Shown piece after piece: positions 1 to 13,762 of a stretch of DNA of 64,000 nucleotides. Every line of letters starts with the position of its first letter. Position 1 is the stretch's first letter. Origin of the DNA: Acidobacteriota bacterium (GTDB taxonomy: Bacteria; Acidobacteriota; UBA6911; RPQK01; JAJDTT01); contig CBDCJH010000002.1 in assembly GCA_965217775.1 (NCBI GenBank), positions 4,096,001 through 4,160,000 on the forward strand, written 5' to 3'. Position numbers and translations under genes: made by a program. Under the pieces are notes generated by a model. The model was not told the origin of the DNA and made no database searches. It saw only the letters and a program-made list of their open reading frames with translations.

Positions 1-2868
1 TTGCAAAAACTCCCTCACCGGCTGAGCGTCCGGGACCGGGCCTCGGAACTCCAGCTCGAAGGATCCACCCTCGCGGGTTTCATAACCGCCCATGATCGTG
101 ACGATCTTGTCCGCCCCGGATACGGCGCCCACGGCGCCGAAGAGCCGGAAGGCGTCGCCTGCCTCGAACATGCGGATGGTCAAGACTTCGATGCTCTCCA
201 CCTTCTTCGCCCGTGCCTGCTCCCACAACCGGATCAGGGCCTCCTTGAGAATGCCTTCCGCGATAAAAGACTGAGTCGCTGCTCCGGGCGGATCGCTTCC
301 ACCCTGCTCTGAGACGGAGCCTATACCTCCCCCCCCCACATACGTCCCGGCTGATCCTCCCGGTTTCGTCCCCCCCGGTTCATCGGCCTTCTTCCTTGGC
401 CAGATGCCGGCATTCTTCGCATAGGCCATGGTGAAGATCACGGATTGCTCATCGATCATGATGCCGGCCGCCGGATCGCCCGGTCCGAACAGCAACTCTC
501 CGCGCCGATAGACGTATTCGCTCTGCTCGACGCCGCGCCGCACGCCACGAATGAAGACGTTGTCGCCAATCAGGATCGGGAGCGCGGGATCGAGCCTGAA
601 CTCGTCCCGCAACGCCAGCGTGGTGATCTGACCCTTTTTGAGCGGTGTCCGGTCGCGCACATAAGCGGGGGAGTCCGGCTCGTCCTCGGACAGGCGCAGC
701 TTGTTGAGATCGCGTAATGCCCGCACGATCTGCTGCTGGCCCGCTCCCGGCTGATCGGAGGTGGAATGGATGTCGATCGCCGTGTGGGCCAGATCGACCC
801 TACTCGCGCCGACCCGGTTGCGGGATGGATAGAACACGTGCCGGTAACACTGTTGAATGGCGATCGCGAGTTCCTGCTCGGATCGGGCTTCCAGCTCGCG
901 CACCTTGGCCTGCTGGTGCTCCGCCAGATCGATGAGGCGTTCCGGCTTTTTCAGTTCCCGCAGCGCCAGACGATGATAGGTCTTGCGGCGCATCTCCGCC
1001 TTGCGGGCTCCGTCCGCGACCACGAACACCACATGGTTCCGAAGCCTCCTCAAGGCCGAACCTTCCGAGCCTTTCCGAGTGTAGATCCGCTCGATCAAAT
1101 CGGGCACGTTCTCAACCGAGCTGCCGATGGTCAAGCCGTCATAGGACAGAACGATGAGCTTCGGCCGGCCGTCGCCGACCTCGTCGGGAACATCGAACGG
1201 CCCTCCCGGAAAGGACACCGTCTCGAACCTCTCCCCCCCGAATATCTGGCGGATGCGGTCGTTGAGCTCGGCGCGGGCTTCCCCGGCATCCACATGGCGC
1301 TCCTCGCGACGGATGATCTGGCGCAGATTGGCCTCGGCCAGAAAGCGCATCGGCGCGCCGGGGCGGTCGTCAAGGTAGGCGGAATCGGTGATGAACTTCT
1401 CGCGCGCCCCCTCGATAAAGCTGATGTCCGTCTTGGGACTCAGGATCGAATAGCGCAGCTGCTCCGGAGAAATCCCCTTGAGCGGATCGTTGAAGGCCAG
1501 CGTGTGCATGAAGATGGTGCGGGCGACATAGACTGCATACGGCGGCAGGCCACCGTGATTAAGGGCGTCGATCTCCTGCGCCAGCGCCTTCTTCCCGGCC
1601 AAACCGGCAGCAACGTCGTTGGTGATGGCCGGCAGGTAGGCGGACTGCCCGAGGCGTGTCACGATCTCCTGGCGGACGGGTTCGTAGCCGGGATCGATAT
1701 GGTGAAGATGAATCGCCGTCGCGTCCGCGGGCTGCTCCTCCCAAAGATGCGAGATGGTCCGCGCCAACAACCGCAGCATGCCGCGAACTCGCTGAAAATT
1801 GCCCAGTGTCGCCGTCTTTCCGGTCAGGGTCTCCAGCACTTCCGGATGCAGCGGGTAACTCGAGCGGAAGGTCTCCACCGTCTCCGCGCGGCCGGCCTCC
1901 TCCGACAAGGACTCCTTGTTGGCTCTCCACCGCGCCCGGTAGGCCTCCGTAACAGCGGGAATCTTGGTCTCGTCGATGAATTCGAACAGACGGCGGCGGA
2001 GCACCTGAACCGTCTCGTCCTCCTCTGTGGGGTTCAAAAGCGTCGCCTTGCGAGCCGAGACGCTTTCCGCTTCGGCCATGTGATCGGCGATGAACTGAGT
2101 TTCTTCATTGTAGGCGTCGGTGGCTCGGCCGTCCTTGCCGATCGCCAGGGTGTAGACGAGGGCGGCGTTGGGCGCGCTCTCGACAGCCTTGAACAATGAG
2201 GTCAGAAACGCCGTCAACTGATCGCGAGCATCCTCAAGGTTGCGCACCTTGCGCAGGTAAACCGAAAGTTCGTCGAGCAGAATCAGGGTCGGCTCGTCGC
2301 CGAACAACTCGCGCAGGGTCTCGGCACCCGGTGCGATGCAACTTTCGTCGCTCCTGCGAACCCGCTCGTAGCCCGCTCGCCCGGCAAGCGCATGGGCAAG
2401 CTCGCCCCAGGGAGTATAGGCGAGAAGACCTCCTTCCATCCTCCGGCCATTGGCCGGATCAGCGTTCTCACCATCGAATGCCGCAACGCGGACATGGCTT
2501 CGAGGCAAAAGGGCCGGATCGACAAACTCCGCAATGTTCGAGACGCTCTGCATTCCGTGTGCGGCATGGCACAAGGCGATCAGCCCGTGGGTCTTGCCGC
2601 CGCCGTAAGAGGTGTCGAGCCGGATAATCGACGCGATCTCCCCCCCCGCACCGGTCAGCCGCCGACACACATTGGCGAGCAGGTTCTTGAGGCCCCTGGT
2701 GGGATAGGTGTTGGCGAAGAAACGGACCGGGTCACGATATTCGGCATTTCCCGAGCCGGTCTTGATGATGACTTGGGCTAGATCCGCCGCGAAATCGGAT
2801 TCAGTAATCGCTCCCTTGAGAACGTCCGCTCGCGGCCGGCAGATCTCGAATAGGGTCGGGATGGTCAT
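1..2868 (-). CDS. DUF499-family AAA+ ATPase (3' end beyond left window edge)
   Basis: Missing from the ORF track (consistent with no stop in the window). Read manually: ATG at 2868 gives MTIPTLFEICRPRADVL..SDFAADLA; Walker A LDTSYGGGKTHGL near 2580-2620; Walker B ILLDEL near 2270-2285. Confidence 0.85.
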   Translation of the reverse strand, partial: MTIPTLFEICRPRADVLKGAITESDFAADLAQVIIKTGSGNAEYRDPVRFFANTYPTRGLKNLLANVCRRLTGAGGEIASIIRLDTSYGGGKTHGLIALCHAAHGMQSVSNIAEFVDPALLPRSHVRVAAFDGENADPANGRRMEGGLLAYTPWGELAHALAGRAGYERVRRSDESCIAPGAETLRELFGDEPTLILLDELSVYLRKVRNLEDARDQLTAFLTSLFKAVESAPNAALVYTLAIGKDGRATDAYNEETQFIADHMAEAESVSARKATLLNPTEEDETVQVLRRRLFEFIDETKIPAVTEAYRARWRANKESLSEEAGRAETVETFRSSYPLHPEVLETLTGKTATLGNFQRVRGMLRLLARTISHLWEEQPADATAIHLHHIDPGYEPVRQEIVTRLGQSAYLPAITNDVAAGLAGKKALAQEIDALNHGGLPPYAVYVARTIFMHTLAFNDPLKGISPEQLRYSILSPKTDISFIEGAREKFITDSAYLDDRPGAPMRFLAEANLRQIIRREERHVDAGEARAELNDRIRQIFGGERFETVSFPGGPFDVPDEVGDGRPKLIVLSYDGLTIGSSVENVPDLIERIYTRKGSEGSALRRLRNHVVFVVADGARKAEMRRKTYHRLALRELKKPERLIDLAEHQQAKVRELEARSEQELAIAIQQCYRHVFYPSRNRVGASRVDLAHTAIDIHSTSDQPGAGQQQIVRALRDLNKLRLSEDEPDSPAYVRDRTPLKKGQITTLALRDEFRLDPALPILIGDNVFIRGVRRGVEQSEYVYRRGELLFGPGDPAAGIMIDEQSVIFTMAYAKNAGIWPRKKADEPGGTKPGGSAGTYVGGGGIGSVSEQGGSDPPGAATQSFIAEGILKEALIRLWEQARAKKVESIEVLTIRMFEAGDAFRLFGAVGAVSGADKIVTIMGGYETREGGSFELEFRGPVPDAQPVREFLQ

Positions 2869-3151
2869 GGTTCTCACTCTACCTGACTTTCTGAAATTCT
2901 GGCTCCGCGACGATTGGTTCCAGCCAATCCCGCCCGGCGTGCCGCAGGGGCAACGCCTGGGGGCCTATAGCTTACTCATGGTCTAAGGAAGATCATCGAT
3001 CCTGGGGCCTCTGACGGCCGCGAATTTACCATGGTCCCACGATAATTCTGCTTGACGGCGCTCAGGCGACATTTTGGTGGTTGGTGGCCTCAGCCGCGAT
3101 CCAGGCCAGCCTCCGTGGGCAGTCCTTCCTGCGGCGATTTCTACCATTAGA

Positions 3152-4237
3152 TTAATTAAATTTTCTCCCTCGGACCTGCCGAGTTCTCGTTCTTCTTCGG
3201 GAACCCGGCGAATCGAAAGACGGCTCCTCCTCCCCATTCAGCCACGCTTTCATTCCCAAGAAGACTCTCGGCAGTGTCGTGCCATGGTTTGCGAATTCCG
3301 AACTCAACGCTTCCCCAAACGTGGGGAACTCACTGCGGATCAGACGATCATGTATCTCCTCCCCGAATTTGTCCGCCAAGTATTTCAGAATGAAACTGTC
3401 GCCAAAGTAAACGTCCCCGCATGTAATCTCAGGATGATTGCCGGTGAGTGACTCGCAACAGCCGATTTTTGATCCGGCATTTCTGCGTACTTCTTCCAAT
3501 AGTTTTTCGAGCCCCTGCATCCGGTTGGACTCAGTCGTGTTGAACAACCCCTCGTATTCTGCCAAGCCCTCCGCGATCCATGGCGCTGGCGCTTTATAGA
3601 AATAGCCCCAAATGCTCAGTTCGGCCGCATGAGTGATTTCGTGGACCAAGTTCTTGGCATGATAATCGATGGGCGGAAGCTGGAGCCGACCCCAGGCCGG
3701 CCGTGTCTGCCACTCAGGATGGGACGGTGCAAGATATGGAATCCATGCGAAATAGCTTCCATCGTCTTCTTGGGAGCAGCACTTGAATGATGTCAGGCTC
3801 GTCTTGGCATCGTCGTTTGGATCGGGGACGAGGACGATGAAAAGGTGGAGGGGTGCGGTGAGATACCCTCTACCCTCTTCGTACCGTACCGCAGTGAATT
3901 CCGATACGGAATATTTGTCTTGCATGACTTGGAGTCCATGGTCAATCCAATCCGCAACGAATGGGACATCCTGTTCAAACTCTGTCGTGTAGCAAATCGA
4001 GTATCGTTCGTAATCCGATCTCAACCAATCGACATGATCGTAGGAAGATTTGTTGTAAGTGAGATTATCGCATCCGGCATCGACCCGACTGACGACCACG
4101 GCTGAGAGAATGGGAAAGACGCATAATACTAACGACCATCGAATTCTAACCGGGAGAAGGGGACAGTTACCTTCTCTACTCTGACCGGTCAGAACGTGCC
4201 GCTCAAGGACGTCCATTACCTGGCTGGACACGCCCAC
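3152..4237 (-). CDS. Gluzincin-type metallopeptidase-like exported protein (start uncertain)
   Basis: HEITH followed by PWIAEGLAEY; hydrophobic stretch near N-terminus. The 5' part of the ORF overlaps a repeat and an integrase remnant, so the true start is unclear. Confidence 0.65.
   Translation of the reverse strand: MGVSSQVMDVLERHVLTGQSREGNCPLLPVRIRWSLVLCVFPILSAVVVSRVDAGCDNLTYNKSSYDHVDWLRSDYERYSICYTTEFEQDVPFVADWIDHGLQVMQDKYSVSEFTAVRYEEGRGYLTAPLHLFIVLVPDPNDDAKTSLTSFKCCSQEDDGSYFAWIPYLAPSHPEWQTRPAWGRLQLPPIDYHAKNLVHEITHAAELSIWGYFYKAPAPWIAEGLAEYEGLFNTTESNRMQGLEKLLEEVRRNAGSKIGCCESLTGNHPEITCGDVYFGDSFILKYLADKFGEEIHDRLIRSEFPTFGEALSSEFANHGTTLPRVFLGMKAWLNGEEEPSFDSPGSRRRTRTRQVRGRKFN
4148..4183 (+). 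repeat. 36-bp direct repeat, copy 1
   Basis: AACCGGGAGAAGGGGACAGTTACCTTCTCTACTCTG; one mismatch to 6848-6883; internal AGAAGG/CCTTCT hairpin. Confidence 0.9.
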
Positions 4238-4268
4238 CCCGCACCACCCAGAGATCTACGATCGGCGA
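4190..4268 (+). pseudogene. C-terminal remnant of a tyrosine recombinase
   Basis: QNVPLKDVHYLAGHAHP, then (frameshifted) RTTQ..IYDRR, matching the LxGH..xxTT..Y box II. Confidence 0.55.
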
Positions 4269-4334: not shown

Positions 4335-5033
4335 TTAACATGCTGTCAGAGTTCTCCTTCGGCCGTCCCTTCTCCGCAGGTTCAAGGAGTTCTGGCGCAC
4401 GAAGCTGTCCCAAGACTCGTAGCATCGAATCGAAGCCTTCTTCAGATGCGGCGCACCGGGAGTACGCTTCAGCTTTCCGGTCAATAGGAACATGCTCTCG
4501 TTGATCCTCCTCGTAATCGGGTAGGGTTCGCGGTTGGGAATAAACTTTGGGTCAAGAAACCCCTTCTCGATATTTCTGGGAGTATGTTTGTTGTTGGCTT
4601 TCCAGAACTCTCTCTCCCTTGGCCCAATCGGGATGATCTCACCTTGTTCGAATGCCTTTGACCACCGGCGGAATTCCTCTTTCAACTTCTCAAACAAATC
4701 CTTCGATACGATGAACACATCCAAATCGGAACATGTGACCGAAAATTTTTTGCCTAGCTTCTTCGGAGCTAGCGACGCTCCAACACGACCGCTGCCCACA
4801 ATGCCAATTTCCTTTGCATGCACATCCAGAAAGAAACTCAGCCAAGAGCGGATGGACTCGTAGATCGCCGGACACTCTCGGAATGCGTAAGGGATACCCT
4901 CCGACAGCCAGAGGCGAACGAGCGCTATCCGTGCCGGCTCTCCACCTCGCTCTGCAGCATCCAATACAAAACATGGGTTCGGGTATGGACCAGTGAGATT
5001 TCTCAGTGGGTCCGGAATGCTAAATGGTTCCAT
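4335..5033 (-). CDS. Pol-beta-superfamily nucleotidyltransferase-like protein
   Basis: IVGSGRVGASL...SDLDVFIVS fits the hG[GS]..DxD signature. Confidence 0.7.
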   Translation of the reverse strand: MEPFSIPDPLRNLTGPYPNPCFVLDAAERGGEPARIALVRLWLSEGIPYAFRECPAIYESIRSWLSFFLDVHAKEIGIVGSGRVGASLAPKKLGKKFSVTCSDLDVFIVSKDLFEKLKEEFRRWSKAFEQGEIIPIGPREREFWKANNKHTPRNIEKGFLDPKFIPNREPYPITRRINESMFLLTGKLKRTPGAPHLKKASIRCYESWDSFVRQNSLNLRRRDGRRRTLTAC

Positions 5034-5701
5034 CTTCGATTGTTCTCCCCGGCATCTTTCAACGACATCAAATGGTCAGCACGACGTTGAATCTTCCGCT
5101 TGTGCTCAAGGCTCAAGGTTTGTGGTTCAGGGTACTTGAGTCGAGCAACAAGCATTGCCGATTTGAGTTCGCTTGCCGAACTCGGGTCGATGTGACCTCG
5201 AAGACAAGCCTGCCTGAAGCTGTTCATCTGCCAGCCATAGTATGCGACCCAGAGATAAAGAGCAGGCAGCCGGATGCGGCCAATGTGGCGCGTCACGCGA
5301 ACAGCGAGAATCATTTCGCTCAGCTTGCGCCGACAGGTTATCTCGTAGCGCCCCGTCACGGTGCGCACGAGCTGCATCGCAATTGTTGATCCTCCTTGCC
5401 GTTGGCCGCAGAAGATCGTCTTCCATACGGCTCTACACATTGCTATGGGATCCACGCCTGGATGGTGATGGAACCGACGATCTTCCCCGGCGACTAAAAA
5501 CTGACACATCTGATGAGTGGGCTTCGGAGCGTCAGCGGAATCCATCTCTGCGACGATTTGGTCCACCTTGTTTTGGAGCTTTCCCCATTCCCCCTGTGCG
5601 ATCCTCTGCCAGAATCTAGGCAGCGCGACAAGGATCACTCCGACCAAAACAACTCCCACTGGAAACGCTACAGTCAGGACGCTGATGTGCTCGACACCCA
5701 T
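5003..5701 (-). CDS. Stand-alone GT51 peptidoglycan transglycosylase-domain protein
   Basis: N-terminal TM helix; EDRRFHHHPG, GGSTIAMQLVR and RKLSE correspond to GT51 motifs 1-3; no transpeptidase domain. Confidence 0.85.
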   Translation of the reverse strand: MGVEHISVLTVAFPVGVVLVGVILVALPRFWQRIAQGEWGKLQNKVDQIVAEMDSADAPKPTHQMCQFLVAGEDRRFHHHPGVDPIAMCRAVWKTIFCGQRQGGSTIAMQLVRTVTGRYEITCRRKLSEMILAVRVTRHIGRIRLPALYLWVAYYGWQMNSFRQACLRGHIDPSSASELKSAMLVARLKYPEPQTLSLEHKRKIQRRADHLMSLKDAGENNRRWNHLAFRTH

Positions 5702-5907
5702 GCTTCAACCTGCTCTGTCCATTCTCCCAGGTCTGCCATGGTCTCCGTTCACATCTCGGGCGGGGCGGGCGAACTCGAACCACAGCTTACGCCAAATCCG
5801 TCGCCGACGATGTATTGGTCTCGGCCTCGGGCTCCTGTTATGGTTCGGCGTGCCGGCCAACTGGCCCTGGAAACAGGCCACAAAGGGCGGCTCCCTGGGA
5901 GAAATCC

Positions 5908-6786
5908 ATGCCCGCCGACCCTACGAGCTTTAAAGATCTAGCTCATCGTGTGAACTACGCGCACAAAAACACCCAACGCCAATACGACAAGTATCCCCCG
6001 AACGACGACATGGTGCCTATCGCCGCCGCCATCAATGCCTGGACGCTTGTCTGCGGCTGCTATATGGGCATCGAGCAGACGATGAAGCTCCTGATTCGGA
6101 TGCGCGGCGGAGTCTCGGAGAACAAACTCAGGGGAACCCACGACCTAGCGTGCCTCTATTCGCTCCTCGACGCTTCGGAGCGGGCCGTAGTCACTAGCTA
6201 CTACCGTGTCTACCGCAGCCTTCACAACTTCGACACCGGCAGTATTGCCCTGGACACCGCTGACGAGTTCATCCGGCACATAGGCGATGGCTACACAAAG
6301 TGGCGCTACATCTTGGTCGAAAATCCCGAGCCGCCCAAGACACACTTGGGATTGATGCTCGAAACCTGGCGGGCATTGGCCCATCTCGCTGTACACCGCG
6401 TATGGGGTCGCGCATTTCACACTCTGGCAGACTACCTGGAAAGCTACATCATGCAGTCCCTCTGCCATGCCGCAGAAAACGATACCGACTGGCAGAAGGC
6501 AGCCTTGGACGAGAACAGTGGAGTCGGGTTCCGCGAATTGCGTGATTGGTTTCACCACCAGAGAAGACCCCTGGTGGCGGGCATCGAACTCTTAAACCGT
6601 TATGCTCAGGGGACTGGAAGCTCCGTACGAGCCTCACCGCTGGCACGCCGCGTCCTACTCCGTGCAGCAGACAAGGCGGTGCGCGGCCCCTATCCAAACT
6701 ACAGGCGGGACGACATCACAATGTTCCATCGCCGAATCCGAGGCAGTGGATTAGCCTGGAACGCCGACAAAGAAGTATTCGAGTAG
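5908..6786 (+). CDS. HEPN-like domain protein
   Basis: GGGAG RBS before ATG; IEQTMKLL...THDLACLY...KWRY pattern resembles HEPN domains. Confidence 0.55.
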   Translation: MPADPTSFKDLAHRVNYAHKNTQRQYDKYPPNDDMVPIAAAINAWTLVCGCYMGIEQTMKLLIRMRGGVSENKLRGTHDLACLYSLLDASERAVVTSYYRVYRSLHNFDTGSIALDTADEFIRHIGDGYTKWRYILVENPEPPKTHLGLMLETWRALAHLAVHRVWGRAFHTLADYLESYIMQSLCHAAENDTDWQKAALDENSGVGFRELRDWFHHQRRPLVAGIELLNRYAQGTGSSVRASPLARRVLLRAADKAVRGPYPNYRRDDITMFHRRIRGSGLAWNADKEVFE

Positions 6787-6847
6787 TTAATGTGGACCTT
6801 GATCAGATCTTCCATAGAATCCAGCCCCTTAAGCGACCATACAGGAC

Positions 6848-6883
6848 AACCGGGAGAAGGGGACAGTTACCTCCTCTACTCTG
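6848..6883 (+). repeat. 36-bp direct repeat, copy 2
   Basis: AACCGGGAGAAGGGGACAGTTACCTCCTCTACTCTG, 2700 bp downstream of copy 1. Confidence 0.9.
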
Positions 6884-6961
6884 CAGATTTTGTAGTCGAC
6901 GACGCACGGTGCGAGTATGGACGCCGGTTGAGCCGTCTCCTGTAATCGTAAAAAATGGGCC

Positions 6962-7578: not shown

Positions 7579-8034
7579 TCAACTCCGCCGGTCAATTTCA
7601 AACGTTACTGAAGTGCGGACCGAGTTGGCGATGAAACACTCTTTGTGGGCAAGTTCGTGGATCTTCTCCAACCCTTCGGGAGATGGTGGCAGGGACCCAA
7701 AGGAGACCTTGGGATGGAGAACCACACGAGTCACGGCCAACTTCCCATCCCCGTTCTTCTCCAGGAACCCTACCGCTGCATCCCGGTAGTGATCCACGAC
7801 CAGCCGCTTACGAGCAGCGATGGCGAGAAAAGTGAGCATATGACAGCTCGCGAGTGCCGCAACATATGCCTTTTCGGGATCGACCAGGTTCGGATTCCCC
7901 AGGTACTCGGGTGCTGAGGACGCACTGACTCGAACCCCACCCTCAAACTTCCAAGTGTGATCGCGGGAGTAGGACCGATACTTGAATTCGGCAGAGCCCC
8001 TTTCCCATTCCACTGTCGCGTGATGCTCCGACAT
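7579..8034 (-). CDS. OsmC/Ohr family peroxiredoxin
   Basis: DPEK..AALASCHMLTFL and AHKECFIANSV, the two-Cys signature. Confidence 0.9.
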   Translation of the reverse strand: MSEHHATVEWERGSAEFKYRSYSRDHTWKFEGGVRVSASSAPEYLGNPNLVDPEKAYVAALASCHMLTFLAIAARKRLVVDHYRDAAVGFLEKNGDGKLAVTRVVLHPKVSFGSLPPSPEGLEKIHELAHKECFIANSVRTSVTFEIDRRS

Positions 8035-9311: not shown

Positions 9312-9713
9312 TCAGCCGTTCTGAAGGAAAGGATTGACGATCGTAAGATTCCCGATACGACGCCCTGCCTGAAGGTCTTCCGTCAACAGGATATCGCATC
9401 CGGCTTCGAGGGCCGAGGCAACAATCAGCGAGTCGTAGAAGCTGAAACGGTGCACTCGAGCGAGGTCGACGGCTGCGGAATGGATTTCGACGCCGATGGG
9501 CCGAACGGGGCCGAGCGCCGTTTGCAAATCGGCAACCGCCTCGGCGATCACACCCCAATCAAGCCCGAACTTGCGGTGGAGAACAGACGTGAATTCGTTC
9601 AGGACTTGTACACTGATCGTGCCGCCAGCCAGGATGAGCTGACGGGCGATCTCACTCTTGGGACCCGTTCCTTGGGCATAGATCAGTATGTTCGTGTCGA
9701 GAAACGCGGTCAC
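9312..9713 (-). CDS. vapC: PIN-domain toxin (VapC-like)
   Basis: FLDTNILIY, QVLNEF, FYDSLI, LLTEDLQ; 4-bp overlap with the upstream antitoxin. Confidence 0.92.
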   Translation of the reverse strand: MTAFLDTNILIYAQGTGPKSEIARQLILAGGTISVQVLNEFTSVLHRKFGLDWGVIAEAVADLQTALGPVRPIGVEIHSAAVDLARVHRFSFYDSLIVASALEAGCDILLTEDLQAGRRIGNLTIVNPFLQNG

Positions 9714-9940
9714 CTGGCGTTGGCTTCATTTCGATCAAAGGTATAGCCATCGGGCAGGGTCCAAGCGCGCTCTTTCATCCGCTCGACCGCCCTCGCTCGG
9801 CGCTCATCCCGCGCGAGGGCAATCCGCGTGGGCGCCGCGGACACCACTTCCAACTCGTCTCCGGGTTTCAGGCCAAGGTCCTCAACTAATGCCTTGGGCA
9901 ACCGTACAGCGAGACTATTGCCCCATTTGGAGACACGCAT
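9710..9940 (-). CDS. vapB: AbrB/MazE/SpoVT-type antitoxin
   Basis: VSKWGNSLAVRLPK swapped-hairpin motif. Confidence 0.92.
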   Translation of the reverse strand: MRVSKWGNSLAVRLPKALVEDLGLKPGDELEVVSAAPTRIALARDERRARAVERMKERAWTLPDGYTFDRNEANAR

Positions 9941-10520: not shown

Positions 10521-12959
10521 TTACAGGTCGCTTGGCCGGGCCATGTGGTAGCCGACCTGGCGGACGTTGAAGATGTAGGCAGGCTTGGCCGCATCGTCGC
10601 CCAGCTTGCGGCGGAGGTTCTTCACGACAGAGCGAATCGGCCGGGGATCTCCGGAGTCCCGCCGTCCCCACACCTGGCGAAACAAGGAAGCGTACGTTAT
10701 GACGTGTCCCGAGTTGACCGAGAGCAATCGGAGCAACTCGTATTCGGTGGCCGTCAGCGTCAACTGGCGATCGGCCACGGTCACCCGACGGTCCTCGTAG
10801 TCGATGACCATGTCCCCCAGCCGGAACGGTTCCGGCGACTCGTGGTTCCGGCGCAAGGCCGCCCGTACTCTCGCCACCAGTTCCGTCTGGGAGAAGGGCT
10901 TGACGATGTAATCGGCGGCCCCATTGTCGAGGGCACGGGCGATGGTCTCGTCCCTTCCATAGGCTGAGATGAAGATGACCGGGCGATCGGCCATCTCAGG
11001 GACGGACTCCATCAGCTCGATTCCATCGGTTCCGGGCAGCATCAAGTCCAGCAGGACCAACTGGGGCTTCTTCGTCCTGACCAAGTGGGCCACCTCCCGA
11101 GGGTCACCCGTCACGAGCGAGGAATAGCCGGCCGCCGCCAGCGTGTCCCGAACATACCGGAGCGTCTGCGGATCATCGTCCACCACCAGGATGGCCGCTT
11201 GCTCCCGCCCTTCACGAGACGGGCGCGAAGCTCCCCGCCCGAAGCCGGCCGCGTCGCGGGCCGCAGGCTCTTCAGCCACCGGAATCGTGAAGGTGAACCG
11301 CGCACCCAGGCCCTCGCCGGCACTCTCGGCCTGGATACGCCCCCCGTGGGCCTCCACCAGACCCTTGCAGATGGCCAGACCCAGGCCGGACCCCCGGATC
11401 CCGCCATCCCCCAGACGCACGTGCTTCCGGAACAGATGCGGCAACAGGTCCGGAGGCACCCCCCGGCCTTCGTCCGAGACCGCGATCGCCACATAAATAC
11501 CATCGAGCGCCGCGCCGACCCGAATGGGGGAGGACTCGGGCGAGTACCGGGCGGCGTTGGACAACAGGTTGTTCAAGACCTGGACGATGCGCTGCCGGTC
11601 AGCCATCACCCGGGGCAGGTCCAGCGGCAGATCGAAGTGGACGGTGTGCCGGCCACCGCCACTAAGGAAGGTGTTCCTGGCCTGATCCACCAGCCTGGCC
11701 ACCTCCGAGGGCTCGGGGATAACCGACAACGTGCCCGTCTCGATATGCCCCGCATCCAATAGATCGCTGATCAGCCCCAGCATGTGATCGGCCTGTTCGT
11801 CGATGATGCGGACGAACTGGTGCGTCTCGGCCGGGGACGAAGTGGCGCTCAATACGGCAGCGGCGGAGCCCTTGATCGAAGTTAGCGGGGCCCGCAATTC
11901 GTGGCTCACCAAGCCCAGGAACTCGGCCCGCAACCGCTCCGTCTCCTTCACCATCTCCATATCCTGCAGGGTGACCACCAGGGACTCGACCGTGCCGTCC
12001 TCGGTACGGATCGGCGTAGCGTTGATCAGCGTCGTGACGCTCCGGCCGTCGGGAACCTGCAAGACGATCTCTTCGGCGCGCACCGGCGCGGCATCGGCCA
12101 GCGCCTGCGTCAGGGGGAACTCTTCGAAGGTCATCTCCCGGCCATCGGCGCGCCGGCACGTGATCACCTCCAACAGTTGTGCTGGGGCGCGGTCCGGGAT
12201 GCTCAGGCGCCCGCCAATCCGTTTTGCCTCTTGATTGAGCAACACCATATTGCCGGTCCTGGCGTCGAAGACCGCGACCCCCACCGGCGAGGTGTCGACC
12301 AGGGCCACCAGACCGGCCCGGGCCCGCTGCTCGTCACGGTAGATACGGGCGTTGGCGATGGCCACGGCCGCCTGGGACGCGAACAGCACGAGAATCTCTT
12401 CGTCCTCGCTCGTGAACTCCCGGCCGCCTTCCCTTCCGCCGAGGAAGAAGTTTCCGACATGGACGCCCTGATGATGCATCGGCGTGCCCTGGCAGGTCGT
12501 CGCCCACCAAAACAAGTCCGTGGAAAAGCCGAGCGAACGGATATGGCTGGAAAAGTCTCGCAGCCTAAACGCTCCCGGAAGGTTCCGAAAATGCTTGAAG
12601 AGGCGCGGTCCGTCGGGCCAAGCCACCAACTGCCGATGTTCTTCCGGAGCTAAGCCGGAAGAGACGAAGTCCTCGACCTCCCCCGAGTCGTCGACGGTCG
12701 TGATCATGCCGAAGTCGGCTCCCGTCAGCGCCCGGGCGCCTTCCACGATCTCGCGCAGCACGGTGTCGACGTCGAGGCTTTCGCTGATGCGCAGGCTGGC
12801 TGCGGTGAGCCTGGAGATGCGGTCCCGTAGTATTTCGATCTCTCGTCTCAGTTCGTCGGGATTTTTCAATGGCCCAACCTCGCCGAATCCTGTAGCGAGG
12901 CCCGATTCATTGGCGCCAAGAACCGGCTCAAACGGGGAGCCGGGTTCAAGATGCGCCAC
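10521..12959 (-). CDS. Hybrid GAF-PAS-histidine kinase-REC-OmpR-type wHTH protein
   Basis: VSHELRAPL H-box, NLLSNA N-box, GSGLGLAI G-box, VVDDD/LLDLMLP receiver, LTATEYELL...NLRRKLGD...VGY winged helix; no TM segment seen. Start uncertain. Confidence 0.92.
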   Translation of the reverse strand: MAHLEPGSPFEPVLGANESGLATGFGEVGPLKNPDELRREIEILRDRISRLTAASLRISESLDVDTVLREIVEGARALTGADFGMITTVDDSGEVEDFVSSGLAPEEHRQLVAWPDGPRLFKHFRNLPGAFRLRDFSSHIRSLGFSTDLFWWATTCQGTPMHHQGVHVGNFFLGGREGGREFTSEDEEILVLFASQAAVAIANARIYRDEQRARAGLVALVDTSPVGVAVFDARTGNMVLLNQEAKRIGGRLSIPDRAPAQLLEVITCRRADGREMTFEEFPLTQALADAAPVRAEEIVLQVPDGRSVTTLINATPIRTEDGTVESLVVTLQDMEMVKETERLRAEFLGLVSHELRAPLTSIKGSAAAVLSATSSPAETHQFVRIIDEQADHMLGLISDLLDAGHIETGTLSVIPEPSEVARLVDQARNTFLSGGGRHTVHFDLPLDLPRVMADRQRIVQVLNNLLSNAARYSPESSPIRVGAALDGIYVAIAVSDEGRGVPPDLLPHLFRKHVRLGDGGIRGSGLGLAICKGLVEAHGGRIQAESAGEGLGARFTFTIPVAEEPAARDAAGFGRGASRPSREGREQAAILVVDDDPQTLRYVRDTLAAAGYSSLVTGDPREVAHLVRTKKPQLVLLDLMLPGTDGIELMESVPEMADRPVIFISAYGRDETIARALDNGAADYIVKPFSQTELVARVRAALRRNHESPEPFRLGDMVIDYEDRRVTVADRQLTLTATEYELLRLLSVNSGHVITYASLFRQVWGRRDSGDPRPIRSVVKNLRRKLGDDAAKPAYIFNVRQVGYHMARPSDL

Positions 12960-13213
12960 GCCTCGCAGACGCCCATCATAAATTATGCTGCCACAAAATC
13001 AGCATAACCTCACCTACTTATCACGCTATCCGCCACCTGCCTCACTCTTTAATCACTCGCGGCGTCTATGTTTTCAGGCAGCTTGCGACCTTCCGGAGCG
13101 CGTCAGCGTAACGAATGGCCAGTGACCGGCGAAGATCAGGCCATGGATTCTGTCAGGATTTCAGACGGAGGCCTCCGAGACGACGAGTCCTCGTCGAGTT
13201 GACGCCGCGCCTG

Positions 13214-13587
13214 TCAACTCCCCCAGTCGATCTCGAACGTTTCTGAAGTGCGGACGGAGTTGGCGACAAAACACTCCTTGTGCGCAAGTTCGTGGATCTT
13301 CTCCAAGCCTTCGGGAGATGGCGGTGTGGAACCAAAGGAAACCTTGGGATGGAGAACCGCACGGGTCACGGCCAGCTTCCCATCCGCATTCTTCTTGAGA
13401 AATCCTACGGCTGCATCCCGGTAGTGATCCACGACCAGCCGCTTTCAAGCAGCGATGGCGAGAAACGTGAGCATATGACAGCTCGCGAGTGCCGCAACCT
13501 ATCAGCCCGTGGCAAAAGTCGTCACGGCATTCGACCGTCCCTGCATCCCGGCGGACTGCGTTGCGACTCGGTCACATGCTCCGACAT
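13214..13587 (-). pseudogene. Second osmC copy, disrupted by MITE insertion and deletion
   Basis: Closely similar to 7579-8034; the 5' portion is replaced by a partial MITE, leaving only the first codons (ATG at 13587). Confidence 0.88.
13503..13582 (+). mobile_element. Partial MITE (left half)
   Basis: CTAT|CAGCCCGTGGCAAAAGTC...; homology stops at CACATGCTCC. Confidence 0.88.
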
Positions 13588-13762
13588 GTCTCGAATCCTC
13601 TGATCTGTGGTGTAACCAGGTTACTCCTCCTCCCGAGCCATTATGGCTCGGAGCCCGACAAGGAAACCTCTTCAACCGCGATGACAGATGCAAGGCCAGG
13701 GATCCATACACTACTCGCCGCCCGGCTTGCAGCCCTCGGCCATCCGGCGCATCATGATCGCC

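Follow-up and report, generated by a model that had tools for sequence, protein, structure and literature searches.

GT51 enzymes are outward-facing wall builders and antibiotic targets. The enzymes of MtgA/MGT and class A PBPs (PF00912) have the fold and motifs 1, 2, 3 and 5, with both glutamates, in common with the GT51 of the module described here, which is encoded beside a nucleotidyltransferase-like protein (NTase) or another partner. The module GT51 differs from MtgA and class A PBPs by its separate branch, its absent or inverted anchor, its RLKYP signature, its accessory character and its constant association with a partner. Motif 4 is YLW, YLS or YLR in module GT51s versus YLN or YFN, presumably the canonical form, in canonical loci. 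HEPN-MNT systems (HepT-MntA, type VII toxin-antitoxin (TA); PDB 1no5, 8xeh) share with the module the GS...DxD motif, the overlapping two-gene layout and the occurrence of fusions. Unlike theirs, the module NTase is twice the size, carries an inserted long loop and helical hairpin and falls below all Pfam NTase cut-offs; its partner is a GT51 (77/79 loci), not a HEPN RNase. CBASS with Cap15 (PF18153) and kindred systems follow the same logic, one enzyme with interchangeable partners, and one partner of the module, the barrel, has a membrane helix and a beta-rich domain that starts PxLxGxW, a short motif to which its resemblance to Cap15 is confined. In the module, however, a GT51 takes the place of the cyclase as the constant enzyme, and the NTase is replaceable and absent from barrel loci. 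Comparison of the barrel with Cap15 by hhalign gave a non-significant probability of 1.8% (three Cap15 sequences only), without a PF18153 match; single barrel members match the PADLOC '2TM' effector models (E 0.003-0.015). Hma/DUF499 BREX-related systems contain embedded cargo (HEC), and the pair studied here lies one gene from HmaC; most module loci, in contrast, are found without Hma.

The module is set apart from MtgA, CBASS and HEPN-MNT because it fell outside each of them when membership was tested. None of the 5027 PADLOC models matches its GT51 or its NTase at E ≤ 1. The pair was not found in the accessible part of PMC12839542 and the module is not described in the accessible part of 10.64898/2026.10.19.760177; a term search of 10.1101/2025.01.08.631726 gave zero matches. 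The literature search returned no description of the module; subscription papers and the supplementary tables of large defence-prediction papers, which could list these families, were outside its scope. The earlier note on this DNA knew of no characterised system of such composition, and the PADLOC and literature results agree with it. The GT51-partner module is real and conserved, and it is apparently undescribed.

The window is the whole stretch of Acidobacteriota DNA that was analysed (64,000 nucleotides). Its relevant features are given below.

1..2877, minus strand: DUF499/HmaC ATPase of an Hma (BREX-related) system (PADLOC HmaC, E 1e-99); the system extends left beyond the window.
3155-4237, minus strand: ORF with a HEITH (HExxH) motif, 361 aa, separating the pair from the DUF499 gene; no family match.
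4335..5033, minus strand: NTase-like gene, 232 aa, Pol-beta/minimal-NTase-like, unnamed family; exchangeable partner.
4719..4796, minus strand: NTase signature G80-S81 ... S102-D103-L104-D105; G80, S102, D103 and D105 in 78/78 rows.
5003..5033, minus strand: overlap of the two genes, 31 bp, from the ORF coordinates of GT51 and NTase.
5003..5701, minus strand: GT51 gene, 232 aa, PF00912 match; constant part of the module.
5315..5317, minus strand: Glu129, GT51 motif 3 (RKLSE); 78/78 rows.
5483..5485, minus strand: catalytic Glu73, GT51 motif 1 (EDRRFHHHPG; EDRRF, residues 73-77); 77/78 rows, the one gap being a frameshifted copy.
5624..5680, minus strand: hydrophobic segment, residues 8-26 (KD19 2.78); no K/R before it, three after; predicted N-out/C-in.
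5815-6783, plus strand: ORF of 323 aa, called 'HEPN-like' in the earlier note; no family match.
9315-9940: PIN/MazE-type pair (vapBC); Pfam match.

The two ORFs, their 31-bp overlap and their catalytic motifs are all present as first reported, and the overlap likely reflects translational coupling. The pair is also AT-richer than the 13.7-30 kb part of the window (GC 53.3% versus 64.9%), in line with the earlier note, which called the DNA AT-richer than the catabolic genes; it has about 53% GC within a 62% GC genome, in which 58 of 4601 tiles have an equally low GC. One gene separates it from HmaC. Among the neighbours that had been named, DUF499 (HmaC, E 1e-99) and the PIN/MazE-type pair hold; the 'HEPN-like' ORF (5815-6783) has no match in Pfam, PADLOC, NCBIfam or PHROGs. 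A homologue of this ORF (26%, E 5e-14) is also found near the GT51-NTase pair of locus L047. The ORF at 3155-4237 probably encodes a secreted metallopeptidase. A search for sigma-70 promoters gave no match. Coverage of the 4.6-kb stretch is complete and even in two RNA-library assemblies, which therefore do not demonstrate transcription.

Other observations concern the surroundings. Left of the window lie two further large ORFs on the same strand, labelled methyltransferase and helicase by eye only. The same-strand run of large ORFs beyond the DUF499 gene (G000:C2:4084400-4098900, reaching window positions 1-2877) resembles Hma/BREX-related methyltransferase and helicase genes, with ATPase and DUF262-like cargo (labels by eye). 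A short intergenic repeat (4140-4260, also near 6813-6890; 24 blastn matches genome-wide) flanks several island genes and may mediate cassette exchange. An OsmC-like gene (7579-8034) and a second, partial copy (13161-13600) bracket the vapBC pair together with the gene of a hybrid histidine kinase/response regulator (10521-12959), which suggests a local duplication or insertion.

The product of 4335-5033 is probably a Pol-beta-type NTase of an unnamed family, with putative activity; this identity is drawn from its motif, from the alignment of its profile with that of PF18765 members and from a weak resemblance of its fold to minimal NTases. GS (80-81) and DLD (103-105) are invariant across 78/78 aligned rows, one S-to-T change excepted, and E45 and R62 are also found in 78/78. 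The structure model (pLDDT 95.9) has strands at 76-79 and 104-109, in keeping with a GS motif followed by DxD on the next strand; a helical hairpin is inserted at about 111-156. Compared with 24 PF18765 members, the NTase profile gave a probability of 49% (E 1.8e-4, 32 columns) with the GS and DxD motifs aligned, and 91.5% (E 8.5e-7) when the insertions were cut out. The third catalytic carboxylate is not aligned in this comparison; candidates are E45 (78/78) and D161 (70/78), and the last strand bears a near-invariant Arg203. Minimal NTases are the first and sixth fold matches, over 93/102 residues (rmsd 3.8, Z 4.9) and 91/104 residues (rmsd 4.1, Z 4.4), Z values that lie within the chance range of the tool. 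A Foldseek search gave nothing at E ≤ 0.001 and a PDB sequence search with the NTase profile gave no match. No Pfam, NCBIfam or PADLOC family and no CD-NTase (SMODS) profile matches the protein. In the Atlas, it matches unnamed clusters only, one set of which is 11% PF01909. Its relatives number 555 among 50%-cluster representatives (E ≤ 1e-3).

The GT51 of the pair, a putative lipid II polymerase, matches PF00912 (Transgly, E 2e-27, 96.2 bits versus a curated cut-off of 27), as well as PF00912 clusters of the Atlas. Its predicted structure matches solved peptidoglycan glycosyltransferases (PDB 2oqo, 3vmt; E 2e-7). It fails the MtgA equivalog TIGR02070 (37.2 bits versus a cut-off of 182.65). 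Short GT51s form a branch separate from canonical ones with a support of 100 (two quick trees, 39 canonical rows; this value is not a bootstrap); by sequence, they are a separate, non-housekeeping clade. The RLKYP motif is specific to this clade and its Tyr190 is conserved in 75/78 rows. Both catalytic glutamates are also kept in 14/14 barrel- or helical-partnered copies. The GT51 and NTase profiles are unrelated to each other.

The earlier note called the GT51 membrane-anchored. This is true of the window protein (residues 8-26) and is an exception in the family: a hydrophobic N-terminal segment is found in 3/72 NTase-linked GT51s, even when the longest possible start is taken, versus 38/39 canonical GT51s of the same genomes. 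Anchors occur in the subclade of the window GT51 (18/120 close homologues), with positive charges after the segment in 18/18. In canonical GT51s the charges lie before the segment in 29/38, after it in 3 and are tied in 6. Given an anchor that is absent or charge-inverted and the established positive-inside rule, hydropathy and charge alone predict a GT51 domain on the cytoplasmic side, in contrast to MtgA and PBPs. NTases require cytoplasmic NTP, and in 5/6 GT51-NTase fusions no segment reaches the hydrophobicity threshold (KD19 ≥ 1.6). The barrel-GT51 fusion has one hydrophobic segment, which is N-terminal, and barrel proteins have a K/R excess after the helix in 8/8. Among barrel-partnered GT51s, 9/11 begin with a hydrophobic segment (KD19 ≥ 1.6) that has K/R on both sides, which counts against a uniform picture.

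Pairs of this kind do occur elsewhere. One scan of species-representative genomes, with a pattern that favours closer relatives, gave 79 NTase loci from many phyla. The GT51 lies immediately upstream of the NTase in 77 of them (72 short pairs, one fusion, four long GT51-transpeptidases); the remaining two are a locus at a contig edge and an NTase pseudogene without GT51. All 72 short GT51s are on the same strand as the NTase. The two genes overlap in 65/72 measurable pairs, by 14 bp in 31. Six GT51-NTase fusions were found, one among the 79 loci and five among the best 150 of the 555 representatives. None of the 7996 candidates scored in the 5.8-billion set was a longer NTase fusion; the search was weak, as the representatives do contain fusions. 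Pairwise identities of GT51 and NTase correlate (rho 0.68, 0/999 permutations as strong; relatedness uncontrolled). No third gene is conserved, the largest other neighbour cluster comprising 8 loci. A scan of the metagenomes with the GT51 profile gave, among the matches listed, canonical GT51s at 72/79 loci, none with an NTase. The alternative that an ordinary MtgA happens to lie beside an unrelated gene has a negligible probability: the 77/79 linkage, the six fusions, the separate clade and the 37 bits versus the MtgA cut-off of 182.65 rule it out.

The module is accessory, since the NTase was not found in any of 40 relatives of the genome of the window (8 of them congeneric) and other GT51s are present in 45/46 host genomes. 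No NTase match was found in annotated phages and no match to the window DNA in E. coli genomes; plasmids gave one match. The NTase is broken beside an intact GT51 at L048, L071 and L078; L023 is the reverse case (GT51 frameshifted, NTase intact). Assembly errors may account for these broken copies. In one study, the contigs of two runs (X18, X19) carry a one-base insertion in the 8th codon of the NTase. In these contigs (window 4740-5011), the sequence diverges over 4740-4961 and the GT51 is nearly unchanged. The variant is possibly, as read from these contigs, a natural NTase-null.

The NTase is not the only partner. The search from the GT51 side gave 26 loci of the clade (three centre genomes excluded; some near-duplicates): 7 with the NTase, 16 with the barrel, 3 with a helical protein and none without a partner. 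The GT51 is thus the constant part of three or more architectures, and the module is not a fixed GT51-NTase pair. The barrel, the commonest partner in this GT51-anchored sample, combines a single membrane helix with a beta-rich domain; it is fused to the GT51 in L165. The family is unnamed (examples: L246:917-1414, L258:2312-2857, L244:2734-3186) and has invariant G, E-K, R, Y, R and G residues; a PDB sequence search with its profile gave no match. E. coli prophages carry it, as do an island and a plasmid, and the barrel version is present in 5/5426 complete E. coli genomes (one DNA query). In an E. coli prophage, the barrel pair fills the accessory slot that separates Q from the holin. One chromosomal prophage pair of barrel and GT51 in E. 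coli has the locus tags I6K07_RS11800 and I6K07_RS11805 (NZ_CP070103.1). The genes of helical partners (L168:803-1465, L251:1942-2637, L174:3440-4084) are convergent and overlap the end of the GT51 gene. The L168 and L251 proteins, clearly related (E 2e-29), both carry a membrane helix at the N-terminus; that of L174 is weakly related. The closest GT51 to that of the window in the tree is 67% identical, from the same genus, barrel-partnered and nested within the NTase group, so that the partner changes even between close relatives. It is more likely that the NTase serves as a replaceable effector than that it defines the module.

Long GT51-transpeptidases (L067:646-2118, L068:2-1345, L069:316-1806, L062:2-781; about 490 aa) each lie directly upstream of an NTase; the L062 contig holds the transpeptidase part only. 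They keep SxxK, SxN and KTG, have no N-terminal anchor or signal (two complete copies) and group with the canonical side of the tree. By sequence they are a second recruitment to the NTase, and possibly cytoplasmic PBPs. The gene row of L067 is SLT, long GT51, NTase, barrel. The association of the NTase with two GT51 lineages points to GT51 chemistry, rather than one interface, as what is read.

Enrichment near defence genes was found: PADLOC matches at E ≤ 1e-15 concern 24/147 nearest neighbours versus 5/124 control ORFs (Fisher p 0.001), and 20 versus 1 without the matches judged generic. Controls were ORFs from arbitrary positions of host genomes (124/160 scanned, 31/40 regions), and there is some dependence between the loci. 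The PADLOC scan covered 286 of the 392 selected neighbours, the Pfam scan 147. By a hand tally of the neighbours scanned, 29/76 loci have a recognisable defence gene nearby and many lie among housekeeping genes. Pairs are inserted inside type I RM operons at L028, L029 and L034; others adjoin type III methyltransferase (MTase) and HEC genes, and the plasmid copy adjoins DUF4365, PLD and TIR genes. MTase, HEC-01B or HEC-06 matches adjoin five relatives (L033, L042, L048, L050 and the L079 group). Cell-wall neighbours were dropped as support: the transpeptidase-family gene of L023 encodes a signal peptide and resembles a class D beta-lactamase (by eye), and the SLT of L058 resembles a phage lytic enzyme (label by eye). 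The GT51-NTase pair is probably a defence or conflict module. The two-gene defence/TA module first proposed is thus supported in part, by linkage, fusions, sporadic spread and defence enrichment; its partner is not fixed, and the link drawn between nucleotidylation and lipid II or cell-wall chemistry is conjectural.

How it would work is a more tentative matter. In the reading that is preferred, though with less than even confidence, infection would supply the GT51 with lipid II on the inner leaflet, and the action of the GT51 on it would turn on a toxic partner that is exchangeable. As long as the cell is healthy, MurJ would quickly flip lipid II outward and leave an inward GT51 short of substrate. 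If infection depolarised the membrane or put MurJ out of action, lipid II would accumulate inside; according to PMC6465408, MurJ depends on the membrane potential, and a phage lysis protein inhibits MurJ. The GT51 would then polymerise inner lipid II, and the lipid-linked glycan or the released undecaprenyl pyrophosphate would activate the partner. An activated NTase would nucleotidylate some target, leading to cell arrest or death; barrel and helical membrane proteins would play the same role at other loci through membrane damage. This trigger model explains the partner swaps between unrelated folds, the presence of the NTase on two GT51 lineages and the tolerated loss of the NTase. Inner-leaflet lipid II may be too inaccessible or too scarce for it.

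The partner swaps also fit a constant toxin with a variable controller. In such a TA or abortive infection system, which is possible but would be somewhat surprising, the roles are reversed: an inward GT51 would kill by futile polymerisation, draining lipid II and the undecaprenyl carrier, the NTase would be the antitoxin (e.g. by AMPylation, as MntA AMPylates HepT), and barrel and helical proteins would be alternative controllers. A GT51 working on the wrong membrane side would make a simple toxin; its catalytic residues are invariant, RLKYP supplies the conserved Tyr190 (75/78), and GT51s of the clade were never seen alone (26/26 partnered). The nearest folds of the NTase, minimal NTases including the HEPN-MNT complex, and the gene overlap and fusion, typical of TA pairs, agree with it too. 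A cognate antitoxin is nevertheless hard to reconcile with its replacement by an unrelated fold beside a 67%-identical GT51 and with service to two distant GT51 lineages. The NTase is, moreover, broken beside an intact GT51 in three genomes and apparently also in a natural population (X18, X19).

A module outside phage defence altogether is unlikely. It would be an accessory envelope function, in carrier-lipid recycling or in tolerance to lipid II-targeting agents, with an NTase that provides the GT51 with an activated or capped lipid or sugar phosphate, and it would collect in islands as other mobile cargo does. Over half of the loci are without a recognisable defence neighbour among those scanned, and the long form retains three transpeptidase motifs, once behind an SLT gene. 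The absence of any further conserved gene or pathway (no other neighbour cluster spans more than 8 loci), the replacement of an enzyme by non-enzymatic membrane proteins and the sites within RM operons and a prophage accessory slot argue against such a function. Slightly less probable still is a guard or decoy, in which the GT51 mimics a host wall enzyme and holds its partner inactive until the binding of a phage protein releases it. Fusions, tight gene coupling and one sensor with unrelated partners would suit it; a pure decoy, however, need not retain both glutamates and the entire active site. Host GT51 domains, furthermore, face outward, so that a cytoplasmic decoy mimics no target of a cytoplasmic phage protein.

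The broadest form of the preferred trigger reading is doubtful as yet: a new class of immune signalling, in which a cytoplasm-facing peptidoglycan polymerase would sense lipid II and make a wall-derived messenger for interchangeable effectors (NTase, barrel, helical), the pairing having arisen at least two times, once via an anchor-less class A PBP. If the module is what it appears to be, it would be the first use of a GT51 in immunity or toxin-antitoxin biology within reach of these searches. The barrel version in E. coli makes it directly testable. If the GT51 is the toxin, a new killing route would exist, lipid II being drained from within; if the GT51 is the trigger, lipid II flux would become a phage-sensing signal.
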